A stretch of DNA of 64,000 bases from an uncultured bacterium (GCA_938036315.1 CALHPK010000001.1:144109-208108); one strand, 5' to 3'. Shown: positions 3,602 to 48,951, counted from the first letter of the stretch. Program-made: numbers and translations. Notes: generated by a model from the letters alone, not told the origin.

Positions 3602-3877
3602 ATGGGAAAAGTAGAAGATTCCCTAAATTTACTGAGAGAGCTTGGAGACGAAGATCTGAAATCAAGATTATTAGAATCAAGAAAGGAACTTTTCGCGCTC
3701 AGAACACTCACCTGGAGAGAGGGGAAAACAAATCCTGCAAGAATAAGAGCTCTGAAGAAAGAAATAGCAAGAATACTTACAATTTTAAAAGAAAAAGAAT
3801 TGAGTAAGAAAGCACAAAATGCAGTAGATGGTCAGCAGGGCAGTGATAGAGAAATGGGAAGAAGAAAAAACAGATAA
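3602..3877 (+). CDS. rpmC: 50S ribosomal protein L29 with an unusual ~25 aa basic C-terminal extension
   Basis: LRELGDEDLKSRLLESRKELFALRTL...NPARIRALKKEIARILTILKEKE aligns to the L29 helix-turn-helix consensus (ELRE.S.EEL...L...K.ELF.LR). The gene is not in an S10-operon context. Confidence 0.7.
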   Translation: MGKVEDSLNLLRELGDEDLKSRLLESRKELFALRTLTWREGKTNPARIRALKKEIARILTILKEKELSKKAQNAVDGQQGSDREMGRRKNR

Positions 3878-6839: not shown

Positions 6840-8366
6840 ATGATAGGAGCAGATGAAATATCTCAGATAATAAAGCAGAGAATAAAGGAGGTTGAATTTG
6901 AGGCTAAATTTGATGAGATAGGAATCATCACATATGTCGGAGACTACATCATAAGAGCTTACGGGTTGACCCAAGTTATGGCGGGTGAAGTTGTTGAAAC
7001 TCAATCAGGGCAGAAAGGGATAGTTCTGAATCTCGAGGAGGAATCGGTTGGTATAGCAATTATGGGGAACATTGAAAATGTAAAGGAGGGGGATGTAGTC
7101 AGAAGGACGGGGAAATTGTTTGAAATTCCTGTGGGCAAGGCGGTACTTGGGCGTGTCATAAACGCAATAGGAGAGCCAGTTGACGGTCTTGGCGACATAA
7201 AGTATGAGGAGACCAGACCCGTAGAGGTGAAAGCTCCGGGTGTCGTTATGAGACAGCCCGTCCGCGAGCCCCTCCAGACCGGCATAAAGGCAATAGACGC
7301 AATGATCCCAATAGGTAGAGGTCAGAGAGAACTTATAATAGGGGATAGACAAACAGGAAAAACAACAATTGCAATAGATACTATAATCAATCAGAAATAT
7401 GCATCCCCTCCTGTTTACTGCATCTACGTAGCAATAGGACAAAAACTACAATCAATCGCACAGATTGTAAGTACATTGAGAGAGAACGGGGCGATGGAAT
7501 ACACAACGGTTGTTGCCGCATCAGCTTCTGAACCTCCTACTCTTCAGTATGTAGCTCCATATGTAGGTTGCACAATCGGAGAGTATTTCAGAGATAATGG
7601 TATGCACGCTCTGATCATCTACGATGATCTAACAAAGCATGCACAGGCTTACAGAGCTCTGGCACTACTCCTCAGAAGACCCCCTGGAAGAGAAGCATAC
7701 CCGGGGGATGTTTTTTATCTGCACTCACGCCTTCTTGAAAGAGCTGCAAAGCTCTCAGATAAATACGGCGGAGGATCTCTAACAGCTCTCCCAATAATAG
7801 AAACCCAAGCTGGAGACGTCTCCGCTTACATTCCAACGAATGTAATATCCATAACAGATGGTCAAATATACCTTGAGCCGGAACTTTTCTACGCAGGAGT
7901 TAGACCAGCTATAAATGTAGGAATTTCCGTCTCACGCGTTGGAGGAAATGCCCAAATAAAAGCTATGAAAAAAGTCGCTGGAATGCTTAGATTGGAACTC
8001 GCTCAATACAGAGAGCTTGAGACTTTCGCTCAGTTCGGCTCCGATCTTGATCCCGCAACTCTCAGACAAATCGAAAGAGGTAGAAGGCTCACAGAAATCC
8101 TAAAACAAGAACCCCGAAAAGTCCTTCCCGTTGAAAAGCAAATAGTAATAATTTACGCTGGAACTCGTGGATATCTTGATAAATACCCTGTTCGCCTGTG
8201 CAGAAAATACGAAGAAGAACTATACAAATTCCTTGATTCAAAATATAGCAACTTACTTCAAAAAATAAGAGAAGAAAAAGAATTAACTCCTGAGATAGAA
8301 GAGGAAATTAAAAAAGCTCTCTCAGAATTTGATGAGTTCTTCTCCTCCTATGCTAAATCAGCATAA
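6840..8366 (+). CDS. atpA: F0F1 ATP synthase subunit alpha
   Basis: [19 protein letters not shown] is the Walker A motif, [48 protein letters not shown] is the alpha-subunit signature, and the 508 aa length fits. Confidence 0.93.
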
Positions 8367-24986: not shown

Positions 24987-25508
24987 TTAAAAGAGTATCT
25001 CTTCCTCCTTTTTGATCACTTCTTCTTTTGGTTCTTCAACCTCGGCTTCTGGTGCAGACGGAACAGGGACTCGAGGCTTTGGCAATATCTCAGGGATAAA
25101 CTTTGTGAGAAATGAATCTATCATATATAAATCCGCAAACCCTATAGGGCCAACTGTTACTGTTTCATCTCTGACTGACATACTGAAGAAAACGCCATCG
25201 TCTCTCCTTTCAATTTTGAAGGTTTTAGGTAATCCCCTTTTTCCAAACTTCTCCGGTGTGTGTGAAATAGATGGATTCTTTTTTGGAGATTGTCCAGCAA
25301 GTGTGAGTCTAGAAAATGCGCCTATGATTGATGCTTCTTGCGGAGTCAAAGCTATTGTCACCTTCTCTTCCCATCTATATTTCCTTCCACCTGACTCCCT
25401 GCCAGCACCACCTACGGGCTTAGCAAAAGATATAAACACAACTCCCCTCAGAGGATCAGCTGAAAATCTTATAGCTCCGTTGTTCCTGTATATAGTTAGG
25501 ACAGACAC
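24987..25508 (-). CDS. Hypothetical protein with two internally related halves and a Pro/Glu-rich C-terminal tail
   Basis: The ORF is present but no confident family could be assigned. A nucleic-acid-binding fold (PC4/Whirly-like) is possible but not supported further. Confidence 0.4.
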   Translation of the reverse strand: MSVLTIYRNNGAIRFSADPLRGVVFISFAKPVGGAGRESGGRKYRWEEKVTIALTPQEASIIGAFSRLTLAGQSPKKNPSISHTPEKFGKRGLPKTFKIERRDDGVFFSMSVRDETVTVGPIGFADLYMIDSFLTKFIPEILPKPRVPVPSAPEAEVEEPKEEVIKKEEEILF

Positions 25509-25518
25509 TTTATTTTTG

Positions 25519-25590
25519 TGGAGTCGAGGGGATTTGAACCCCCGACCTTCGGCGTGCCATACCGACGCTCTCCCGCTGAGCTACGACCCC
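25519..25590 (-). tRNA. tRNA-Ala (anticodon GGC)
   Basis: Hand-folded cloverleaf with acceptor GGGGTCG/CGACTCC including the G3:U70 Ala identity pair. Anticodon loop is A-T-GGC-A-C, T-loop is TTCAAAT, and there is no encoded CCA. Confidence 0.9.
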
Positions 25591-27723: not shown

Positions 27724-27768
27724 TGTGGCAGACTGGTGGCGGACTGGTGGCGGACTTGTGGCAGACCA
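27724..27768. repeat. GC-rich 11-bp tandem (tggc[a/g]gact[g/t]g x ~4) between convergent slt-like gene and efp
   Basis: tgtggcagactggtggcggactggtggcggacttgtggcagacc stands out against the AT-rich background. Confidence 0.6.
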
Positions 27769-27794: not shown

Positions 27795-28349
27795 CTAAGT
27801 CCTACCTATATACTCTTTTGTCTCTGGGTTCACCTTAACTCTGTCTCCTTTTTTAATATGAAGTGGTACTTGAATAGTCACTCCGTTAGACAAAATAGCA
27901 GGTTTTGACCCTCCTGACTCAGTATCTCCTCGAACTCCAGGAGGGGTATCCGTCACTTCAAACTCCATGACTTTGGGAAGCCTTACAGTAATCGGTATTC
28001 CATTACTTAATATTATATCAAAATCCACATCCTCCACAAACCAAATTCCAAATTCACCCACCGATTCCTCACTGAACCTGTACTCCTCATAACTTTCTGA
28101 ATCAAGGAAAACATACTGATCGGCATCTTTATATACATACTTTGCTTTACGTATTGAAACATCGGGAGACTTTAACTCTTCAGATGAAACAAACGTTCTA
28201 TCTAATGTTTTCCCTGAAACAGTATCTTTAAGCTTGACTTTCACATGCGGTTGTCTCTGGGCAATCTTCTGCCTCTCAATAGATACAACTTCATAAACCT
28301 TGTTGTCTATCTCAACGAACGATCCTACTTTCAAATCACCAGCTCTCAC
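27795..28349 (-). CDS. efp: Elongation factor P
   Basis: The protein aligns to EF-P along its full length (KOW-like domain I plus two OB domains, ...GDTESGGSKPAILSNGVTIQVPLHIKKGD). The start codon is GTG. The loop that normally reads KPGKG is QKIAQRQP here. Confidence 0.9.
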   Translation of the reverse strand: MRAGDLKVGSFVEIDNKVYEVVSIERQKIAQRQPHVKVKLKDTVSGKTLDRTFVSSEELKSPDVSIRKAKYVYKDADQYVFLDSESYEEYRFSEESVGEFGIWFVEDVDFDIILSNGIPITVRLPKVMEFEVTDTPPGVRGDTESGGSKPAILSNGVTIQVPLHIKKGDRVKVNPETKEYIGRT

Positions 28350-28399
28350 AGAATTGATTTATAATATGAAATAAGAAGAATCAGAAAGAAGCAGAAAAC

Positions 28400-28696
28400 T
28401 CAGCCTAACTCAATAAGATCATTTTTCCTGAGTTCATCCACAAACCCATAAATCATATCCTGTGCTTTATCTATTGGAATTTTCTTTTCCTTTGAAATGA
28501 GTTGGACTATCTTATGTATTGGGATTTTATCTATAAATTTCCAAATAAGAGCACCGGTTTGGTTTAGCTTGAAAATATTCCCTCTTCTGAGAACAAAAGC
28601 TGAATCCTTAAAAATTTTTTCAAATTCACTCTTTTTCTTTATACTTAACCTTGTTTTTATTCTTCTTCTCTTTTCGGTCTTACTTACACTCATCAT
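28400..28696 (-). CDS. PqqD-family (RiPP recognition element-like) small protein
   Basis: FKLNQTGALIWKFIDK...IHKIVQLISKEK..IPIDKAQDMIYGFVDELRKNDLI matches the PqqD winged-helix pattern (LNeTaa.Iw.l.DG....I...l...y.v......D...fl..L.....i). A basic ~30 aa N-terminal extension is present. Confidence 0.55.
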   Translation of the reverse strand: MMSVSKTEKRRRIKTRLSIKKKSEFEKIFKDSAFVLRRGNIFKLNQTGALIWKFIDKIPIHKIVQLISKEKKIPIDKAQDMIYGFVDELRKNDLIELG

Positions 28697-28836
28697 TTTC
28701 TGTTACTGATGGTATGCTTATCTTTATTCGTACCTATCTTAACTTATTAACATTCTATTCTTTTTTCTTTGTATTTTCCAGATCAACAAAATCTGCAAAT
28801 TCCCAAAATAAGAGGGGGTTAACTAAAAAATTAGTT

Positions 28837-29022
28837 ATGGCCAGATGTTTTTTCTGTGGGAAAACAACCGCCTTTGGGAACAATGTATCACATGCTGGGA
28901 ACAGAACTTCAAGAAAATTCAAGGCAAATTTAAAGAGGGTAAGAGCAATAATTGAAGGAGAAAAAAGAAGAGTCAATGCATGCACGACTTGTATAAGGAT
29001 GGGAAGACATCTCGGTCTATAA
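28837..29022 (+). CDS. rpmB: 50S ribosomal protein L28 (zinc-ribbon form)
   Basis: MARCFFCGKTTAFGNNVSHAGNRTSRKFKANLKRVRAI aligns with B. subtilis-type L28 ([38 protein letters not shown]). The conserved start is internal within the longer track ORF 28651-29022. Confidence 0.8.
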   Translation: MARCFFCGKTTAFGNNVSHAGNRTSRKFKANLKRVRAIIEGEKRRVNACTTCIRMGRHLGL

Positions 29023-29095
29023 CTTGGTCTATAAAATAGGATCTATAAAATGGGGAGACATCCTGGTCTATAAACTAGGGTCTATAAACTAGGGA
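29005..29095. repeat. Degenerate tandem array of ~15-bp units (ggtctataaa[a/c]tagg) spanning the 3' ends of convergent rpmB and GT2 genes
   Basis: Units read ggtctataac / ggtctataaaatagg / atctataaaatgggg / ggtctataaactaggg / tctataaactaggg / agatactaggg. The array supplies the last codons of both flanking ORFs. Confidence 0.55.
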
Positions 29096-29884
29096 GATAC
29101 TAGGGAGATATTTACTGTTTTTCCCGAGGATTCCAAAGAAACCATGAACAATTCCTTCAAGTCCGGCGATAAATTGCTCCTTTGTGAGATACGGAATCCT
29201 TTTCAGAAAAAAGCCAATAGGCCTTATCACTTTCTTTTTATCATATTTTAAATGAATATATACTTCATTTCTCAGAGCATAGTATAACCTAAAAGGTTCT
29301 GAATATACCTGCTTAACCCCCTTTAGCCCCTTGCTCCTTCTTAGATACCTTGCATCAGGAATGATGAAAATCTTAAACCCTAATTTCCTCATCCTTAAGA
29401 AAAATTCAACATCGTCCCCGTAAAGAAAAAACCTGTCATCTGGAAGACCTGTTTTCTCAACAGCCTCTCTCTTCATAAGAACTCCTGTCCACACAGATGA
29501 TTGGACCTCTTCTGTATCTCCTGAATAGTCCTCCCACGCACAGCGAACAGCTCCTGCTTCCTGAATTTTTATAATACTATCCAACAGTACCTTTAAGGCA
29601 TTATAGGAATATTCTGTGTCATCGTCTGATGTAAAAATAAAGTTGAAGCCATCCCTTACAGCTTTTCCGATACCAAGCTTGTATCCTCCTGCACTTCCTA
29701 AATTATCCCCACTACCGATTATTTCAAGATTCCTCACCTTACCCAAACTCTCCAGAGTTATTTTATCAAGCCCATTGTTCACCACGATTATTCTACCTGG
29801 TCTGAGCTCCTGAAGATTCAGATTCTCCACCGTATCTATTACGCTTTGTTTGACTGCCGGAATTACAACGCAAATCTCAAGCAT
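29075..29884 (-). CDS. Glycosyltransferase family 2
   Basis: [10 protein letters not shown]...[16 protein letters not shown]...FTSDDD carries the GT-A DxD motif. Confidence 0.7.
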
Positions 29885-29968
29885 AGTAATACACTACACA
29901 AAACAAAATTAAAGCTAAATTGGTTGAAAATTTATAATCCTGTTTTTGAAATATCTATATTGTGCTTT

Positions 29969-30154
29969 ATGCCAACCGCGGCAGATAGACAGCAGATATA
30001 TAAAAAACCCAAATTTAAAGTCAGAAAAGTAAACAGATGCCTAAGATGCGGTAGGCCCCGAGGCTTTATAAGATTCTTCTCCTTATGTAGAATGTGCTTC
30101 AGAGAGTTGGCTCTCAGAGGAGAAATCCCGGGAGTCAGAAAAGCATCCTGGTAA
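29969..30154 (+). CDS. rpsZ: 30S ribosomal protein S14 type Z (zinc-binding)
   Basis: [49 protein letters not shown] is near-identical in pattern to type-Z S14 (CxxC...CxxC). The conserved start is internal within track ORF 29846-30154. Confidence 0.85.
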
Positions 30155-30171
30155 AAGGAGGTGTAAACAAC

Positions 30172-30582
30172 ATGGGGATAACAGATCAGATAGCAGATAT
30201 GCTAACACAGATAAGAAACGCAATAGCAGTCAAAAAAGATAAGATCGAAATACCCGCCTCAAGAATGAAAATCCAAATAGCTTCAGTCCTAAAAGAAGAA
30301 GGCTTCATAAAAGACTACGAAATAGTACCAGATAAAAAAAGCGGCAGACTCATTATCTATCTTAAGTATTTCTACCCCGAACCGGGAGTTAAAATTTCCG
30401 TTGTAAGAGGATTGCAAAGAATCTCAAAACCAGGAAGACGCGTCTACATCAAAGCGAAGGAATTAAAACCTGTATTTGGAGGTACTGGCATTCTTATTCT
30501 CTCAACTCCCAACGGTATAATAAGCAATACAACAGCCAAAAAGCTAAATACAGGGGGGGAGGTAATCGCTAAGATTTGGTAA
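30172..30582 (+). CDS. rpsH: 30S ribosomal protein S8
   Basis: MGITDQIADMLTQIRNAIAVKKDKIEIPASRMKIQIASVLKEEGFIKDYE...GGEVIAKIW is the canonical S8 sequence. The conserved start is internal within the track ORF. Confidence 0.88.
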   Translation: MGITDQIADMLTQIRNAIAVKKDKIEIPASRMKIQIASVLKEEGFIKDYEIVPDKKSGRLIIYLKYFYPEPGVKISVVRGLQRISKPGRRVYIKAKELKPVFGGTGILILSTPNGIISNTTAKKLNTGGEVIAKIW

Positions 30583-31396: not shown

Positions 31397-32056
31397 TCAC
31401 ATCAGGGAAAATATAAAATCCAAAATTTTATTATAAGCTTCAGAGCTATACGTTCTTTTATACTCTTTCATAATCTTTATAGCTTCCTCTTCTTTGATCA
31501 ATGACATAAAAAAGTTCCTCTTCAGGAAAGAAACAATGAAAGAAAAAACTTGAGTCACATTTTTCGGTCTCTGGGAAAACGTGGCAGATTCAAAATCAAT
31601 AAGTACAATTCCCTTTTTACTAAGTATAACATTCTTATAAGGTCTATGCATCTCATTTTTTGATATTTTAAGAATATCAAGCTTCCTCGCCTGCTTCAGA
31701 ATATCTAAAAATAGAAAAATTTTCTGCGGAGCAGAAAATTCGTCCGAATCTATAACTTTGTCAAATGTTACACCTTCTATAAATTCCTCAACAACAAAAT
31801 CGTACCCATATAATAAAAGGTGTGGACCTATTCCCTCTTGATTTACTATCTTGAGTATCTCAGCTTCTTTCAAAATATTTCTTGAAAGCTCGGGAGATCT
31901 TGCAACTTTTATAATTACCTTTTTACCATCTAATTCTGAAGTATAGATATTTCCTCTCCACCCTTTAGTGAGAAAACCTACATTCTTGCAAGCTCCCAAA
32001 AATTTTTCTGCATCTGTCTCCAGAAACTTCGGCACTTTACGTAAACTCGTATGCAA
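31397..32056 (-). CDS. Small protein-kinase-fold protein (Bud32/RIO/Kdo-kinase-like)
   Basis: GWRGNIYTSELDGKKVIIKV resembles a Gly-loop followed by the VAIK lysine. HRPYKNVILSKKG resembles the catalytic loop and LIDFESA is DFG-like. Confidence 0.45.
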   Translation of the reverse strand: MHTSLRKVPKFLETDAEKFLGACKNVGFLTKGWRGNIYTSELDGKKVIIKVARSPELSRNILKEAEILKIVNQEGIGPHLLLYGYDFVVEEFIEGVTFDKVIDSDEFSAPQKIFLFLDILKQARKLDILKISKNEMHRPYKNVILSKKGIVLIDFESATFSQRPKNVTQVFSFIVSFLKRNFFMSLIKEEEAIKIMKEYKRTYSSEAYNKILDFIFSLM

Positions 32057-32266: not shown

Positions 32267-32779
32267 ATGGCGGAGGTTGAAAAATTACTTTTCTTTGGGG
32301 CATCACTGATAGCTATATTTTCATCAATTCTTGCAATAACAAGGAGACAACCAATATTTGGAGTAATTTACCTTCTTGTTCTGGGACTTACCGTATCATT
32401 CCTCTTTGCTCTAAAATCTGCTTTCTTTCTCTCATTGATACAGATAATCATCTACATAGGAGCTGTTCTTGTTCTTTTTGTTTTTGTAATATCTATGATG
32501 AACCTCCAGCCTGATGAGAAAATAAATCTAAAAGACCTGATATCATCGGTTCCAATACTTATCTTCATAATAGTGTTTATCTCGGTTTTGTTCTCTGAAG
32601 CAAGTTTCTATGAGACAAAATTTTCATTTTTCCCGGCAAGCTTAGTAGCAAAAAGTTTTTACAAGGATTTATTCTTCCAGTTTGAGCTTGTATCGGTTTT
32701 CCTTCTTGCAGGAATCGTGATAACGATTTTTGTTGGAATGAAAATTAAAGAGGTAAAAAAGGAAGATAAAACCACATGA
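32267..32779 (+). CDS. nuoJ: NADH-quinone oxidoreductase subunit J
   Basis: 5 TM helices with NuoJ/ND6 topology. It is followed directly by nuoK with an ATGA overlap. Confidence 0.8.
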   Translation: MAEVEKLLFFGASLIAIFSSILAITRRQPIFGVIYLLVLGLTVSFLFALKSAFFLSLIQIIIYIGAVLVLFVFVISMMNLQPDEKINLKDLISSVPILIFIIVFISVLFSEASFYETKFSFFPASLVAKSFYKDLFFQFELVSVFLLAGIVITIFVGMKIKEVKKEDKTT

Positions 32780-33075
32780 TAGGTCCTTATCATTACGCAG
32801 TTTTAGGGACAATTCTATTTTTTACTGGGCTAGGAGGAATTGTCATAAGACGAAACATAATATCTATACTTATCTCAATTGAAGTTGCAATAAATGGAAT
32901 ATTTTTACTTTTCTTTGCTGGAAGCCTGAAAATTGGATACATTTCTCAGGCCATAGTGTTAATCCTTATGGCGGTTGCCGCAGTTGAAGCAGCGGTTGGA
33001 ATAGCACTAGCAATAGCCATATTTAGAACAACAAAATCAGCAAGGATAGAAGGGCTATCAGAATTAAAAAATTAG
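32776..33075 (+). CDS. nuoK: NADH-quinone oxidoreductase subunit K
   Basis: 99 aa, 3 TM, with the conserved Glu in TM2/TM3 (EVAINGIFLL...AAVEAAVGIALAIA). Confidence 0.85.
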   Translation: MIGPYHYAVLGTILFFTGLGGIVIRRNIISILISIEVAINGIFLLFFAGSLKIGYISQAIVLILMAVAAVEAAVGIALAIAIFRTTKSARIEGLSELKN

Positions 33076-33077
33076 CT

Positions 33078-34970
33078 ATGGATACCTGGGGGAAAATAAT
33101 AGTCCTATCTCCACTCATAGGAGCAACTATAAACCTACTTATTCTTGCGTATGAGCATTTGAAAAATCAAGAAAAAGAGAAACAGAAGAGAAACCATAGT
33201 AGTCATGCTAATCACAGCAGTCATGCTGAACAAGGCCACGGGCTAACTCCAATCAAATGGATCTCTGGTTTTATATCATCTCTTGCAGTACTGACTTCAT
33301 TTGTAGGCTCTCTTCTGATATTCAAAAGAGAAAATTTCTCGCTCGAACTTATTGCATGGCTTCCCTTGGAGTCGGTAAAAATCTCTATTTCAGCTCTGTA
33401 TGATGAACTTTCTAAAACCGCACTTTTATATATAACTGGAGTTTCTACTCTTATACATATCTACTCCATAGGGTATATGTCACACGATAGAGGATTCATA
33501 AGGTATTTTATGCTCCTTAATTTGTTTGTTTTCTTTATGATCCAGATCGTCGTAGCAGATAACTTACTACAAATCTTTTTGGGCTGGGAAGGTGTCGGTT
33601 TATGCTCATACCTACTTATTGGGTTCTGGTATTCTGTTTTTGAGAATGCAAGAGCTGGTTTTAAGGCATTCATAACAAATAGAATTGGTGATTTTGGATT
33701 TATAGTCGGAATAGCTCTGGTACTTCTTTACACAGGGGACGTAAACTACTCAGCATTGAAAAATATCCCGACCGATAAAGTGTTTCTTGTTGCATTCTTT
33801 CTGTTCATGGGAGCAATGGGTAAAAGCGCACAGGGACCTTTATGGCTTTGGCTACCAGATGCAATGCGTGGACCTACCCCAGTTTCAGCCCTAATCCACG
33901 CAGCAACAATGGTAACCGCTGGGGTATATATGACCGTAAGATTGAAAGAAATCTTTCTCACTCCATCTGCTTCAGAGCTTGTATTCTGGATAGGCATAAT
34001 AACCTGCCTTCTTATGGGAGTTTTCGGGTTGTTCGAGCGTGATATAAAGAGAGTTCTTGCATTCTCGACTTTATCCCAGCTTGGACTTATGTTCTGCGGA
34101 GCTGCTTCACATCAGCCTTACTCTGGAATCTTCCATGTGTTTGAACACAGCTTCTTCAAAGCAGCTTTATTCCTAATATCTGGAATGCTCATGCATGCAT
34201 TTGCGGATACAACAGATATATACAAGCTCAGGGAAAATAAACCTGCAGAGCGCGGTATGATGCTAAGCACTCTTGGGTTCTTAATAGCTTCGCTCGCAAT
34301 GAGCGGAGTGTTCCCACTTTCGGGATTCTGGTCAAAAGAGTCTATAATCATGGCAGTATCAGAAAAATTTGGAGAAACAGGAGCGGTCCTTATGCTTATG
34401 GCTTCCTTTATAACCCCGCTTTATATGTTCCGCGCATTCTTCATAGTTTTCGGTGGTCAAAAATTTAAATTCTCCCTCTCCCCATCCCTTGAGGGAGGCT
34501 CCCTTATGTTCTTCCCAGTGATAACCTTAGTTGTACTGTCGGTTATCGGCGGAATTTTCAATGTAGGAGCATGGCTCGGGGAAGAGTACGGATACTCCGC
34601 ACAGGCTCATCACTCAGAAATATTAGCAAACCCTGTACTTATCCATATCATAGTGCTTTTAGCAATCGCAATAGCCTACTTTCTGTTCTCAAAAGGTGAA
34701 GAACCTAAAGAGGAAGGGATGAAGAAAATTTTGTGGAAAAAATTATATCTTAATGAAGCTGAAGAGTGGACATTAATCGGGTCAGCTATAGTGATGACAA
34801 AGATTATATACTCATTTCTGGAAAGATTAATTATTGAGGGATTCTACTCCTCCGTTGCTTTTATTTCTAAGGCTGCGGGAAGCCTTATTGCAATTGTACA
34901 CGGAGGAAGCCCTAACCGACTTGTAATTCTGCTAATTTTGGCAATATTGCTTGCAATCATTTTCCTATAA
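33078..34970 (+). CDS. nuoL: NADH-quinone oxidoreductase subunit L (with His-rich insertion after TM1)
   Basis: WLWLPDAMRGPTPVSALIHAATMVTAGVY is the antiporter-like core and there is a long C-terminal lateral helix. The extra segment is NHSSHANHSSHAEQGHG. Confidence 0.88.
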   Translation: MDTWGKIIVLSPLIGATINLLILAYEHLKNQEKEKQKRNHSSHANHSSHAEQGHGLTPIKWISGFISSLAVLTSFVGSLLIFKRENFSLELIAWLPLESVKISISALYDELSKTALLYITGVSTLIHIYSIGYMSHDRGFIRYFMLLNLFVFFMIQIVVADNLLQIFLGWEGVGLCSYLLIGFWYSVFENARAGFKAFITNRIGDFGFIVGIALVLLYTGDVNYSALKNIPTDKVFLVAFFLFMGAMGKSAQGPLWLWLPDAMRGPTPVSALIHAATMVTAGVYMTVRLKEIFLTPSASELVFWIGIITCLLMGVFGLFERDIKRVLAFSTLSQLGLMFCGAASHQPYSGIFHVFEHSFFKAALFLISGMLMHAFADTTDIYKLRENKPAERGMMLSTLGFLIASLAMSGVFPLSGFWSKESIIMAVSEKFGETGAVLMLMASFITPLYMFRAFFIVFGGQKFKFSLSPSLEGGSLMFFPVITLVVLSVIGGIFNVGAWLGEEYGYSAQAHHSEILANPVLIHIIVLLAIAIAYFLFSKGEEPKEEGMKKILWKKLYLNEAEEWTLIGSAIVMTKIIYSFLERLIIEGFYSSVAFISKAAGSLIAIVHGGSPNRLVILLILAILLAIIFL

Positions 34971-34976
34971 AGGAGA

Positions 34977-36443
34977 GTGAAGATTATGGATGCAGTCAAA
35001 CTTACCTTACTCCTTCCCTTTGTAGGGGCAATAACTTCTCTATTTCTGAGAAATATATTTGTTGGACTTAGCTTCTCATTAGCAACCTTGATATCCTCTC
35101 TCTTCATACCCATCGGATACACAGATAAAATAATATTAAGCGAGCAGGTGGGACTTTCAATATCTTTACATATTGATGGACTAAATCTACCACTGATTAT
35201 TCTCACAACTGGATTGTTTTTTCTTGTCTTTTTATACGCAACAGTAGAGAAGCGAGAAAGAAAAGATGAATATATATTCTTATTCTTACTCCTTGAGGCT
35301 TTTGTCATACCGACTTTTCTGACACAAAACCTACTTATCTTCTACTTCTTCTTTGACGCAATCTTGATTCCTATGTTCTTCATAATTGGAATATGGGGAA
35401 CTGGTAAGAAAGTGTACTCAGCTTACAAATTTGTTCTTTTCACATTCTTTGGAGGAGTATTTCTTCTTATCTGTATAATTTACATTGGCAAGGAAGTTTT
35501 TGCAGAATCAGGGAAACTTTCATTTGAACTTGAAGACTTTGTTGAAGTTTGTCGCAAGTTTGACTACAATACGAAAATCTTACTCTTCCTTGGATTTTTC
35601 TTAGCTTTCGCCGTTAAAATCCCGCTCATTCCCCTGCATGTCTGGCTTCCTGACGCTCATACAGAAGCCCCAACCGGTGGAAGTGTTATACTTGCCGGAA
35701 TACTCCTTAAAATTGGCTCATATGCGTTCCTGAGGTTCGCCATACCTCTCTTCCCCGATATCGTAAAAGATTACTACCTTTACATATCTTACCTATCTGT
35801 TATAGGAATAATCTTCGGAGCAATACTAGCCCTTTCTCAGAACGATATAAAAAGACTTATAGCATATTCCTCGGTATCTCACATGGGCTATGTTATGCTT
35901 GGCTCGGTAGCTTTCTCAAGCTTAGATAACAGACTAGTTTATGAAGGACTACAGGGTGCAATATTGCAGATGATAAATCATGGAATTGCAACAGGAGCTT
36001 TATTTTTCCTCGTCGGGATGCTCTACGAAAGAACTCACACCCGTATGATCTCAGACTACTCAGGCATCGCGTCACGAGTTCCTATCCTAACATTCTTCTT
36101 TATGATATTCACCTTATCTTCAATCGGCTTCCCATCAACCGGTGGATTCATAGGAGAGATCCTTGTCATTTTAGGTGCCATAAAATCAAATGTCGTAGTC
36201 GGAATCATCACTGCTGCTGGTGCAATCTTATCCGCAGGATATATGTTATATCTCATACTTCGCGTATTTTTCGGAGAGTACAGAGAAAATAAAGCCACAG
36301 AACATCTTGATGACATAAAAATAATCGAGATCATAACTCTTATCCCATTGGCAATTTTCGTCTTTCTGATTGGAATTTATCCAAAACCACTTATGGGAAT
36401 TATAAGCAATGGAATCGAATTCATCTGGAGGAGCTTGCAATGA
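34977..36443 (+). CDS. nuoM: NADH-quinone oxidoreductase subunit M
   Basis: HVWLPDAHTEAPTGGSVILAGILLKIGSYAFLRF and the ND4 family core. Confidence 0.88.
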   Translation: MKIMDAVKLTLLLPFVGAITSLFLRNIFVGLSFSLATLISSLFIPIGYTDKIILSEQVGLSISLHIDGLNLPLIILTTGLFFLVFLYATVEKRERKDEYIFLFLLLEAFVIPTFLTQNLLIFYFFFDAILIPMFFIIGIWGTGKKVYSAYKFVLFTFFGGVFLLICIIYIGKEVFAESGKLSFELEDFVEVCRKFDYNTKILLFLGFFLAFAVKIPLIPLHVWLPDAHTEAPTGGSVILAGILLKIGSYAFLRFAIPLFPDIVKDYYLYISYLSVIGIIFGAILALSQNDIKRLIAYSSVSHMGYVMLGSVAFSSLDNRLVYEGLQGAILQMINHGIATGALFFLVGMLYERTHTRMISDYSGIASRVPILTFFFMIFTLSSIGFPSTGGFIGEILVILGAIKSNVVVGIITAAGAILSAGYMLYLILRVFFGEYRENKATEHLDDIKIIEIITLIPLAIFVFLIGIYPKPLMGIISNGIEFIWRSLQ

Positions 36444-37834
36444 ATTATAACGGAATAATTATAGAAGACGTAATAAAGGTATGGGGGATTTTTGGAGCCT
36501 CTATTTTTATCTCGGTTCTGGGAGTCATAGTATCACGAGCCCGTAAAAACTTCATCATAAGCTGGATTGCAACTTTTATCTCAATTGTCCTTATTTTTAT
36601 CTTCTCACTATTCGGAGATGAGAGGATATCCGATCCATTCGGTGCAGTCTCATTTGATAAAATATTCTACACAAGCACCTTCTTTCTCTCTACATTTTCC
36701 ATCGCTTCACTTTTCATATCACTTGGAGAAATCTACTCAAAAGAAAAGCTTTTCCCGGAATATTTTCTATTTATTACTTTAGGATTGCTCGGTGGAATCA
36801 TCCTTACAAGCTCAAAAGACCTCCTCACTCTATTCATAGCCATAGAACTTATGTCCTTTCCCATTTATGCTATGGTATATGCATTGAGAGAGAGAATAGG
36901 AGTTGAAGCATCCTTCAAATACTTTATATCAGGAGCAATATTTTCCCTCTTTTACCTATTTGGATTCTCACTTTACCTGATGTCGGAAGAAACTATATCT
37001 ATTCAGAATCCTCAGACCCTTCTGGGGATCATTGGAATAGTTTTTGTTCTCTTTTCTCTTTTATTCAAAGCTGGAGCTGCTCCATTTCACTTTTGGGTTC
37101 CAGATGTTTATCAAGGAGCACCATCATCAACAGTATCCTTTGCTGGATCCGTTGTCAAATTCTCGTCATTCGTTGCTATTCTGAGAATATCAGAAATAAC
37201 CGAAGGGACACTCTCCTTTCTTATTTCCGCAATCGTAATCCTATCCGTCGCTATCGGTGCTCTCTCAGCACTTGTACAAAAAGAAATAAAAAGGCTCATA
37301 GCTTACTCATCAATTTCACACTCAGGATTTATAGCCTTATTTATTCTCGCCTTAGGTAACCACAATTTCAGAGAATATTTTATGTTTTATTTAACAACAT
37401 ATGGCATAGCAACAGTGGGAATATTCGGAATTTTATCAATGTTCAAGAATACCTTAGTTGAGCTACAAGATATCTGTGGCTTTGCTAGAGTTCACAGATT
37501 CTTTGGAATGCTTATATCCATTTTTCTGATATATTTTTCTGGAATCCCAGCAACAGCAGGTTTTATAGCAAAATACCTTGCATTCTACTCAGCCTTGTCT
37601 GCTGGAGAAATTATTCCGGTTATCGTAGCTGGAATCGGTAGCTTAATTTCTCTATACTTTTACTTTCTGCCACCGGTCAGAATGTTTATGGATGAGATAA
37701 AAAGAGAAGTCGGGTTCTCTGTGAATCCAGTTATTGGTATCATCTCCTTGCTGATTGCCATATTCTTAATTCTCTCTGGCTTCTTCCCAAACTTATTTTT
37801 CACAGCTTTTCGAGCAATTCCTTTATCTTCCTGA
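36440..37834 (+). CDS. nuoN: NADH-quinone oxidoreductase subunit N
   Basis: FHFWVPDVYQGAPSSTVSFAGSVVKFSSF and the ND2 family core. It overlaps the nuoM stop. Confidence 0.85.
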   Translation: MNYNGIIIEDVIKVWGIFGASIFISVLGVIVSRARKNFIISWIATFISIVLIFIFSLFGDERISDPFGAVSFDKIFYTSTFFLSTFSIASLFISLGEIYSKEKLFPEYFLFITLGLLGGIILTSSKDLLTLFIAIELMSFPIYAMVYALRERIGVEASFKYFISGAIFSLFYLFGFSLYLMSEETISIQNPQTLLGIIGIVFVLFSLLFKAGAAPFHFWVPDVYQGAPSSTVSFAGSVVKFSSFVAILRISEITEGTLSFLISAIVILSVAIGALSALVQKEIKRLIAYSSISHSGFIALFILALGNHNFREYFMFYLTTYGIATVGIFGILSMFKNTLVELQDICGFARVHRFFGMLISIFLIYFSGIPATAGFIAKYLAFYSALSAGEIIPVIVAGIGSLISLYFYFLPPVRMFMDEIKREVGFSVNPVIGIISLLIAIFLILSGFFPNLFFTAFRAIPLSS

Positions 37835-46957: not shown

Positions 46958-47668
46958 CTATTTCCTCTTTCTCCTGAAAATCGAATTTACATCTACCTTG
47001 ACCCCTGGACTATGCGTTGTTGACAAAGTAATACTCTTTATAAATTGCCCCTTAGCTGTAGGAGGTTTCATCTTCATAATTGTCTTTATGAAGCTTTCAA
47101 CATTTTCAACTAACTTTTCAATCTCCCATGATATTTTCCCACAAGGTATATGGACACATCCTGTCTTATCTGTTTTGAACTCAACCAGACCCATCTTTGC
47201 ATCCTGGACAGCTTTCTTGACATCATTTGTTAATGTTCCGGCCTTGGGATTTGGCATAAGTCCACGGGGTCCGAGAATTTTTCCAGCTTTAGCCAGCTCT
47301 CCCATCATATCAGGTGTAGCTATAATAACGTCAAACGGTGGGACTTCTTTTTTCTCTATTATCTCTTTGATATATGACTCATCTTTCACTTCATCTGCTC
47401 CAGCTTCGATAGCTTCTTTCGCCCTCTCCCCTTTTGCAAACACAAGTATTTTTACCTTTTTCCCTGTCCCATAAGGCAAAACAACACTCCCCCTTACAGC
47501 TTGATCTGTTCTCTTCGGATCTATCCCAAGTTTTACAGCTACTTCACAGGTTTCATCAAAATTCCTCTTCATACTCTTGAGAACCTGTAGGGCTTCCTCT
47601 ACAGTATATCTTTTTGATCTGTCCAAAACTTTGATATTCTCTAGATATCTTTTACCCCTGCTTCCCAT
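46958..47668 (-). CDS. rplA: 50S ribosomal protein L1
   Basis: KRYLENIKVLDRSKRYTVEEALQVLKS...VAVKLGIDPKRTDQAVRGSVVLPYGTGK...GPRGLMPNPKAGT. The conserved start (MGSRGKRY) is internal within track ORF 46958-47746. No rplK lies upstream; a GT4 gene is there instead. Confidence 0.88.
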   Translation of the reverse strand: MGSRGKRYLENIKVLDRSKRYTVEEALQVLKSMKRNFDETCEVAVKLGIDPKRTDQAVRGSVVLPYGTGKKVKILVFAKGERAKEAIEAGADEVKDESYIKEIIEKKEVPPFDVIIATPDMMGELAKAGKILGPRGLMPNPKAGTLTNDVKKAVQDAKMGLVEFKTDKTGCVHIPCGKISWEIEKLVENVESFIKTIMKMKPPTAKGQFIKSITLSTTHSPGVKVDVNSIFRRKRK

Positions 47669-47742
47669 AGGCAGAATTATAATTTTCAGCCAAACATCTT
47701 TTGCATTTAGCTGAAAAATCCTTTCCACACCCTTTGGTACCA

Positions 47743-48951
47743 TCACTCCCCACTTTCTGAATAATTCCTACTTTCTGACCTTATCTTAATGGCCGTTTTA
47801 TATACCTTCATAAGATTTTCATAGGCAACCCGCTCCGAATACTTTGTATCAAATTCTTTCCTACAATTTACTCCCCATTTTTTAAGTAGATCCTTATTAC
47901 CTACGGCGAATTTTACTTTGCTAACAATATCATCAGGATTCGGCTTGAAAATAAGCCCAGTTTCCCCATCTTTTATGATCTCCGGAATCGCCCCTAAATT
48001 GCTACCCAAAGCAGGAGTCCCAACAGCATATGATTCTATAATGACTCTTCCAAAAGTTTCATTCACCACTGAAGGTAGTATCACAAACAAAGCTTTTTTC
48101 ATATGTGCGATAACATCTGGGAAAGAAGTAAATCCAACATACTCAACGCTTTTTAAATATTTTGCCTTCTGGATTACATACTCTCTCATTGGACCATCTC
48201 CCACTATCTTCAATGGAACAAATTCTCCTGATTTTTCGAGTCTCTCCCAAGCTGAAAGAAGAATCCTCAATCCCTTCTCTTGGCTCAACCTACCAACAAA
48301 CAAAGCAAATTCTCTATTATCCCCACCAACCTCAATTTCCCCAGAAACAAAATTAGGTCTTACAAATATTCTCTCTTTCGGGATTCCAATCCCCGCAATT
48401 TTACCCCTCAAGAACTCAGACGGAGTAGTGAATAATTCTACCTTACTCAGCCATGTTTTTAACTTTCTATGCACAAAGATCATAAGAGAAACAGGAAGAG
48501 TCATCATTCTTGAGTTGCGGTAACATCCATAAAAAATGCTCCAGAGCAAATTTTTTGTGCATAACTCACACATTTTATTATCCCTGAAAAACAACCCGTT
48601 AGAACAAATCATTCTATATGTGTGTATGGTCAAAACAACTGGGACCCCAGACTTCCTCGCAGCATAGAAAACAGATGGCGACACCAAAGGGAAAAAATTG
48701 TGAACATGAATCACATCTGGCCTAAAGTTCCTGATCAGATACGAAATCTCTTTAAAAGTAGATGGTGACCATGTTGGAATCATCAAAAGACTAAATTTTT
48801 TCAAAATATTATACTGTTTGATCTCATCGTTATGTCTGAAATAAGGTAAAACCTCAAACCCATATTTTTTCAGTAGCTCATAGTCTTGCTCTGCACACTG
48901 ATCCTCTCCCCCTCTTCTCTGATAAAAATTATGAACAAAAATGACTCTCAT
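47743..48951 (-). CDS. Glycosyltransferase family 4 (GT-B fold)
   Basis: N-terminal MRVIFVHNFYQRRGGED, the EX7E-like region VGRLSQEKG, and C-terminal GT1-type motifs. Confidence 0.8.
   Translation of the reverse strand: MRVIFVHNFYQRRGGEDQCAEQDYELLKKYGFEVLPYFRHNDEIKQYNILKKFSLLMIPTWSPSTFKEISYLIRNFRPDVIHVHNFFPLVSPSVFYAARKSGVPVVLTIHTYRMICSNGLFFRDNKMCELCTKNLLWSIFYGCYRNSRMMTLPVSLMIFVHRKLKTWLSKVELFTTPSEFLRGKIAGIGIPKERIFVRPNFVSGEIEVGGDNREFALFVGRLSQEKGLRILLSAWERLEKSGEFVPLKIVGDGPMREYVIQKAKYLKSVEYVGFTSFPDVIAHMKKALFVILPSVVNETFGRVIIESYAVGTPALGSNLGAIPEIIKDGETGLIFKPNPDDIVSKVKFAVGNKDLLKKWGVNCRKEFDTKYSERVAYENLMKVYKTAIKIRSESRNYSESGE

Follow-up and report, generated by a model that had tools for sequence, protein, structure and literature searches.

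The 64-kb window analysed here (the whole stretch of DNA under study) encodes a 98-residue, stand-alone protein of the PqqD family with the RRE fold, which we read as an orphan adaptor of the discrete RRE type, one whose partner is not linked to it, whose position directly upstream of efp has come about through gene-order shuffling, and which has no link to EF-P. We give this composite reading an even chance. Within it, the best available description, on analogy with relatives of known structure, is that the protein would be a reduced RRE serving an enzyme whose gene lies elsewhere. The reading also does away with a tempting but unsupported connection between PqqD-like proteins and EF-P. The subfamily to which the protein belongs is small and coherent, and in two lineages its genes lie beside the gene for an aspartate kinase without ACT domains; this recurring pairing, rather than the proximity to efp, offers a concrete lead for a use of the RRE fold outside RiPP biosynthesis.

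A stand-alone PqqD-family protein with an RRE fold

The ORF, its strand and its neighbours, as the earlier note had described them, were all reproduced (Table 1), including the gap of exactly 50 bp between the stop codon of the PqqD-like gene and the start of the co-oriented efp gene and the divergent L28 gene that lies across a 140-bp gap on the other side. As read from the window sequence, the ORF opens with ATG ATG, and because no other start-type codon precedes the conserved core, the basic N-terminal extension that had also been claimed (net charge +8.5 over the N-terminal 22 residues) is part of the ORF. The gene is 72% identical to its ortholog in the nearest relative, L010, with a dN/dS of 0.15 at a dS of ~1.1; such purifying selection identifies it as a real gene.

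Table 1. Positions of the genes and sites discussed, counted from the first letter of the window unless another locus is named
Feature	Position	Strand	Description
Dispersed ribosomal, atp and nuo genes	3602-3877; 6840-8366; 28837-29022; 29846-30582; 32267-37834; 46958-47746		
Whirly-family protein	24987-25508	(-)	173 aa; PF08536, 26.7 bits vs 23
tRNA gene	25519-25590		
Tandem repeat GTGGCAGACTG	27725-27766		11-bp unit, 3.8 copies; convergent SLT/efp gap
efp	27795..28349	(-)	184 aa, GTG start; Pfam EFP_N, EFP, Elong-fact-P_C
PqqD-efp spacer	28350..28399	(-)	50 bp, pyrimidine-rich; between PqqD-like stop and efp GTG
PqqD-like gene	28400..28696	(-)	98 aa, stand-alone PqqD/RRE-fold protein; ORF call, PF05402, AF2 model
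PqqD-like/rpmB intergenic region	28697..28836	.	Divergent; contains promoter-like site
Promoter-like site	28780..28752	(-)	TGGAAA-17-TAGAAT; consensus scan, pattern match alone
rpmB (L28)	28837..29022	(+)	61 aa; PF00830, 65.8 bits; TIGR00009, 64.4 bits vs 48.3
GGTCTATAAA-type repeats	29014-29110		Five copies within ~75 bp, plus ACTAGGGAGAT x2
GT2 glycosyltransferase	29075-29884	(-)	269 aa; sub-threshold similarity to GlfT1 and rhamnosyltransferases
Kinase-like protein	31397-32056	(-)	219 aa; weak choline kinase/APH-type similarity, below cutoffs
ACT-less aspartate kinase, L013	6278-7057		
ACT-less aspartate kinase, L019	5281-6060		
ACT-less aspartate kinase, L021	2229-3050		

The assignment to the PqqD/RRE family, likewise put forward in the earlier note, was upheld by both profile and structure. 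The protein matches the Pfam PqqD profile (PF05402) above its gathering cutoff (E 3.6e-10, 40.5 bits vs 23.4) over residues 37-95, corresponding to HMM positions 8-67 of 67, and PqqD is the sole domain found by Pfam and NCBIfam, which returned no homology to EpmA, EpmB, EarP or YmfI. An AlphaFold2 (AF2) model built on a 10-sequence alignment has a mean pLDDT of 83.5, with values of ~90 over residues 21-98 and low values for residues 1-18, and divides the protein into a basic, low-confidence tail (residues 1-18) and a remainder (residues 19-98) composed of a strand-rich N-terminal part and three helices. Strands are predicted at residues 19-21, 25-28, 33-37 and 40-44, with a short C-terminal strand at 95-97, and helices at residues 46-54, 60-71 and 75-91, so that the model has the three-stranded sheet and three helices of the winged-helix RRE fold. 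RREs are also the top structural matches. The best PDB match in Foldseek is leader-bound TbiB1 (TM 0.71/0.79, rmsd 1.8 A; TbiB1 matches overall, TM 0.71-0.80 and rmsd 1.8-2.9 A), the NMR structure of PqqD (5sxy) matches with TM 0.67/0.70, and the further top matches, all of them RREs, are TfuB1 and the RRE domains of MibB, TruD, LynD, CteB and McbB.

Sequence profiles place the protein nearest to the lasso B1 chaperones, which are its best match among solved structures (9x90_B, E 1.3e-6; TbiB1; TfuB1) and among curated families alike. Even so, NF033536 (lasso_PqqD_Bac), the best-scoring of the curated NCBIfam PqqD subfamilies, reaches 27.2 bits vs a cutoff of 80, and the scores for NF033530, a second test of lasso B1 membership (17.6 vs 70), and for the PQQ-pathway PqqD model TIGR03859 (12.2 vs 46) also lie below cutoff. 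Since every curated subfamily scores so far below its cutoff, the protein is a member of the family by domain and fold only.

It is the fold, through analogy with solved relatives, that suggests an adaptor function. The likeliest ligand is an extended segment of peptide or protein, held by strand addition next to beta3 and alpha3, and this segment would then be presented to a partner enzyme whose gene does not lie in the adjacent DNA. Being rich in Lys and Arg, the variable tail could contribute non-specific attraction to a polyanion, for instance RNA, DNA or membrane.

Relatives of the protein are few. A word-indexed homolog search with the single protein recovered only the protein itself, and its relatives were reached by scanning 1.84 billion representatives exhaustively with HMMER, which gave 17 matches at E<=1e-3; ~10 clusters make up the subfamily in profile searches, and the closest homolog (P0052) is 48% identical. 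This very small, uncharacterised subfamily comes from uncultured thermophile MAGs, with one member from ‘bacterium HR19’, and is distinguished by invariant residues K21, F25-E26-K27 (the FEK motif), N45, I51-W52, F85 and L89 and by its basic tails. Locus scans of genomes and metagenomes yielded generic PqqD domains for the most part, together with subfamily members in L013/L014 and L027-L029, all from lineages already represented. These scans were based on a peptide pattern, which the HR19 protein itself escaped, and absence from other genomes therefore proves nothing. Several multi-stretch matches (P0058, P0060, P0065 and P0066), along with PDB ‘Bagel’ and cell-surface proteins, were rejected as spurious: they are beta-propeller repeats, and their common ground is confined to the short motif LYxxNxxGxxxWKF. 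The strand-turn motif of the subfamily, K(L/I)YxLNxxGxxIWKF, resembles the repeat unit of PQQ-like beta-propellers (e.g. PDB 8prj), which accounts for such HMMER matches.

RiPP partners and the class of orphan discrete RREs

The earlier note had remarked on the absence of a RiPP maturase or precursor near the gene, and this absence extends across the 64 kb, as judged by motif and by Pfam annotation of ~36 of the 58 large ORFs, a set that includes everything within 10 kb of the PqqD-like gene. None of the ORFs of at least 80 aa in the window contains the CxxxCxxC radical-SAM motif, and a PqqE-type radical-SAM ORF is accordingly lacking in the 64 kb. YcaO, lasso cyclase or peptidase, LanB/C and SPASM domains are absent from the Pfam-annotated ORFs and from the L001 annotation, pqq genes are absent from the Pfam scans of the window, and a B2 leader peptidase and lasso cyclase are missing from both the annotated window ORFs and the Pfam lists of the homolog loci. 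Nor do any small ORFs near the PqqD-like gene prove to be conserved across lineages. The adjoining maturase and precursor that define a RiPP cluster are in this way both lacking, and the annotated ORFs of the window comprise housekeeping and envelope genes only. These encode, among the neighbours identified by Pfam, an SLT transglycosylase, a cytochrome c peroxidase, a SAM hydroxide adenosyltransferase, a short-chain dehydrogenase, an MCP, a Crp-type regulator, an RND efflux pump, the GT2 glycosyltransferase, S14, S8, CoaE, the kinase-like protein, NuoJKLMN, UDG, an HNH protein and an enoyl-CoA hydratase.

As a control, 25 generic PqqD loci drawn from the same scans were put through this crude motif test: 11 had a radical-SAM-type ORF next to the gene (N-terminal CxxxCxxC, ~350-460 aa), and none of six subfamily loci from four lineages had a CxxxCxxC ORF within 5 kb. 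RiPP genes are normally clustered. This clustering counts against assigning the protein, as its RRE, to a canonical RiPP pathway (lasso or radical-SAM) with the remaining genes beyond the window, as do the lack of a maturase within 5 kb in any of the four independent lineages vs the 11/25 of generic loci and the curated subfamily scores, which are far below cutoff (best 27 vs 80). We consider such a pathway improbable, even though lasso B1 chaperones are its nearest relatives among solved structures and curated families and lasso and PQQ clusters typically contain discrete RREs (PMC12710340).

The lasso B1 proteins (TbiB1, TfuB1; NF033536) resemble the PqqD-like protein in being stand-alone, in their length of ~90 aa and in their fold. 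Unlike the genes for lasso B1, however, the PqqD-like gene has no B2 peptidase, lasso cyclase or precursor near it in the lineages examined, and the window protein carries the basic tail and FEK motif specific to its own subfamily. With the PqqD of the PQQ pathway (TIGR03859; 5sxy, 3g2b) the protein shares PF05402 and the fold, but it differs in its TIGR03859 score (12 vs 46 bits) and in the lack of a PqqE-type ORF in the window.

Orphan discrete RREs form a known, if loosely defined, class (PMC7470986; PMC12710340), into which the protein fits. The RRE-Finder study described discrete RREs that match lasso models and occur without lasso machinery, and proposed that these may be DNA-binding relatives or the RREs of unknown RiPP classes (PMC7470986); the window protein is in the same situation. 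The RRE-Finder orphans are heterogeneous and defined by exclusion, whereas the ~10 clusters of the subfamily described here form a coherent clade that has a motif of its own and comes from thermophile MAGs. The window protein is thus one more orphan discrete RRE in a class already known to hold many, and for RiPP genome-mining tools its FEK/basic-tail subfamily, never found beside a maturase in four lineages, would constitute a false lead.

Recurring neighbours and basic tails of the subfamily

The loci of subfamily homologs present several different gene contexts. In the P0054 context (L013, L018-L020) the order is nuoA, PqqD, aspartate kinase and secretin; in the P0053 context (L021) a divergent response regulator gene is followed by PqqD, aspartate kinase, methylmalonyl-CoA mutase and LeuA_dimer; and in the context of P0057 and P0071 (‘bacterium HR19’; L023-L026) PqqD stands between genes for a YegS-type lipid kinase and a Hanks-type Ser/Thr kinase, the latter followed by CbiX, ArgJ and LeuA_dimer. 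The aspartate kinase gene lies directly downstream of PqqD, with a 17-nt overlap in the P0054-type loci and a 25-nt gap in the P0053-type loci. Its product, of 259-273 aa, consists of the catalytic part alone (positions 2-244 of 407-residue models) and has no ACT domains. Between the P0054 and P0053 lineages the PqqD proteins are 44% identical and the aspartate kinases 74%, and the other flanking genes are different.

This ACT-less aspartate kinase is the only recurring neighbour of the subfamily genes, and the pairing is a better lead than efp, though with two lineages residual synteny is possible. One reading that follows it would tie the PqqD-like protein to the kinase, as its ancestral partner, in the role of a small regulatory or substrate-presenting subunit that has become separated from it in the window lineage. 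The genes are directly adjacent in two well-diverged lineages, and the HR19 lineage has a Hanks-type Ser/Thr kinase gene downstream and a lipid kinase gene upstream of PqqD; these neighbouring ‘kinases’, however, belong to unrelated enzyme families. The recurrence of LeuA_dimer downstream in both L021 and L025 speaks for residual synteny as the alternative, the 64-kb window contains no aspartate kinase, and we know of no aspartokinase that uses an RRE subunit. A kinase-subunit role is for these reasons distinctly improbable.

A second feature of the subfamily is its charge. All 11 members have a pI of 9.0-10.3, unlike the generic PqqD matches, four of six of which are acidic. The basic tails are variable in length and occur at either terminus: P0053, for example, has a 69-residue N-terminal extension with a charge of +18.5, and P0052 ends in KKKKREKSR. 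Because basicity runs across the subfamily in this way, it is as compatible with nucleic-acid binding as with peptide binding. The protein could be a small nucleic-acid- or ribosome-associated wHTH protein, and not a peptide chaperone, whose Lys/Arg tails would bind RNA or DNA and whose L28 and efp neighbours would hint at a role in translation. Variable basic tails of this kind resemble those of many nucleic-acid-binding proteins, a weak, sub-cutoff Pfam match to an HU-like domain (E 0.011) was obtained, and the RRE-Finder authors themselves raise DNA-binding relatives as an explanation for discrete RREs without lasso genes (PMC7470986). The structural comparisons weigh against it, however, in that RREs are the top neighbours and DNA-binding wHTH proteins score poorly and rank far lower. 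In the HR19 lineage and in P0056 the core domain has a near-neutral pI (6.2-6.9), and the proteome of the window is basic as a whole (median pI 8.7; 38% of ORFs above 9). Finally, the translation-gene neighbours are not conserved. On balance we regard a nucleic-acid-binding role as possible, though unlikely.

A broader proposal is that, in a deep-branching lineage of thermophiles, the RRE of the basic-tailed FEK-motif subfamily has been taken up into housekeeping outside RiPP biosynthesis, either as a peptide- or tail-binding subunit alongside the ACT-less aspartate kinase or as a ribosome or nucleic-acid adaptor. We find this proposal doubtful; if true, it would provide the first RRE with a function in primary metabolism or translation.

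The efp neighbour, the EF-P loop and local gene order

Adjacency of PqqD and efp is confined to the window’s own strain (L001, L002) and to L010, whose EF-P is 86% identical and whose synteny with the window extends over PqqD-efp-SLT. L010 is so close a relative that the shared order is expected by descent and is uninformative on function. EF-P relatives of 65-72% identity were examined in six further lineages of the same clade (L003/L004, L005, L006/L007, L008/L009, L011 and L012), which have the same EF-P loop. Here the neighbours of efp differ from lineage to lineage (adh_short/IGPD, pseudopilins/MFS, response regulator-CheX and FliN-like/FtsH, among others), and neither Pfam annotation nor tblastn with all subfamily proteins detected a PqqD gene within 4 kb of efp in L003-L009, L011 or L012. 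Conversely, no efp gene occurs within 5 kb of the subfamily PqqD genes in L013 and L018-L029. The adjacency to which the earlier note had drawn attention is thus kept in L010 and absent from the six further lineages, so that the ground on which the note would have given it up, its absence from every relative, does not formally arise; a conserved linkage to efp across related genomes, as would mark EF-P modification machinery, is lacking. With the pair preserved in L010 only and the subfamily elsewhere in unrelated contexts, the functional meaning that had been attached to the position between efp and L28 is not borne out.

Gene order in this genome offers a different account of that position. 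In the window the L29 gene stands alone, flanked by genes for a Zn-ADH and a DUF72 protein; the L28 gene has the GT2 gene on one flank, and S14-S8 lie between GT2 and coaE; the L1 gene lies between those for a TP_methylase and a GT4, and atpA has the gene for a T2SS ATPase on one side and that for an EamA-like protein on the other; and nuoJKLMN lacks nuoA-I upstream of it, nuoA adjoining the PqqD-like gene in a relative. Since the ribosomal genes and those of atp and nuo are so scattered, adjacency carries little weight and is a poor functional guide in the lineage, and the ‘translation-factor neighbourhood’ invoked earlier is not a meaningful category in this genome. The placement of the PqqD-like gene upstream of efp would be one outcome of the same shuffling.

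The efp product is a clear family member (TIGR00038, 184.3 bits; NF001810, 180.5 bits vs a cutoff of 161) and groups in a clade with Candidatus Calescibacterium. Its loop (residues 25-35, ERQKIAQRQPH) does not have the canonical P-G-K-G. Gln31, followed by Arg32, presumably corresponds to K34 of E. coli and R32 of P. aeruginosa, in a provisional register, and by this alignment the loop tip has Gln31 in place of a modifiable Lys or Arg. Save for the conservative changes R26K and I29V, the loop is essentially invariant in P0003-P0010, which include lineages without a PqqD neighbour, and in more distant EF-P relatives it reads KKARRAA or SHRGRGG. The unusual loop lends no support to a role for the PqqD-like gene.

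A position next to efp is typical of some EF-P modification genes (EpmA/EpmB/EpmC, EarP, YmfI), and in this position lies the sole likeness between those genes and the PqqD-like gene. Unlike the EF-P modification systems, the PqqD-like protein has no catalytic domain, its linkage to efp is not conserved, and the EF-P tip is a Gln. That the protein might act in EF-P maturation or function, for example by presenting the Q31/R32 loop to a modifier, possibly the nearby GT2, draws on the co-orientation of the two genes 50 bp apart without a terminator, the retention of both arrangement and spacer in L010, the loop tip without the canonical Lys/Arg, and the presence of the GT2 gene, with its weak rhamnosyltransferase similarity, 380 bp upstream on the same strand. 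Yet the same loop is found in six lineages whose efp has neither a PqqD nor a GT2 neighbour, the subfamily homologs are never near efp elsewhere among the loci examined, and the literature search yielded no published connection between PqqD and EF-P and no support for one. To our knowledge, RREs in solved complexes bind extended peptides and not a hairpin of a folded domain, which is consistent with the structural matches found here. The link to EF-P modification suggested earlier is, by the absence of conserved linkage, largely refuted, and we hold it to be very improbable. The GT2 was also rejected in its own right as a partner of EF-P or of the RRE: it does not belong to the EarP family, the oppositely oriented L28 gene intervenes, and it is near neither efp nor the PqqD-like gene in any relative examined.

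For the orphan-adaptor reading, the spacer indicates how efp might be expressed in its present position. Sequence reading and a consensus scan revealed no Shine-Dalgarno sequence, terminator or consensus promoter within the spacer, which holds TATTATAAAT, ending 10 nt before the efp start codon. An obvious Shine-Dalgarno sequence is also absent at the start of the PqqD-like gene. The spacer has no stable RNA structure (fold z-score +1.1), and neither Rfam nor PADLOC returned anything at the locus. As no terminator was called, the spacer RNA is unstructured and Rfam is empty, read-through from the PqqD-like gene is possible, and the two genes may be co-transcribed as an operon in the window lineage. 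Between the window and L010 the spacer is ~88% identical and its 50-bp length is conserved; given that synonymous sites in the flanking genes are saturated (dS 1.1 and 2.0), this identity indicates that the spacer is constrained. An AT-rich, TATA-like sequence lies directly before the efp start in relatives too, and in four relatives the upstream gene is divergent, such that efp must carry its own promoter there. Despite possible co-transcription, efp would accordingly be expected to retain its own control region in the spacer, possibly giving rise to a leaderless or short-leader transcript. Upstream of the PqqD-like gene, the promoter-like site in the divergent intergenic region could drive its expression, as far as a pattern match can indicate.

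Several minor features of the window deserve mention. The tandem repeat GTGGCAGACTG downstream of efp is unique in the window (3 matches vs 0.06 expected) and is apparently missing from L010, in which the matching gap is ~41 nt. The gene for a protein of the Whirly family, best known as a plant single-stranded-DNA-binding family, adjoins a tRNA gene. The kinase-like protein gives weak PADLOC matches, below cutoffs, to the PD-T4-6 and mad6 kinases. Finally, the cluster of GGTCTATAAA and ACTAGGGAGAT repeats runs from the end of the L28 gene across the convergent gap between L28 and GT2 into the 3' end of GT2.
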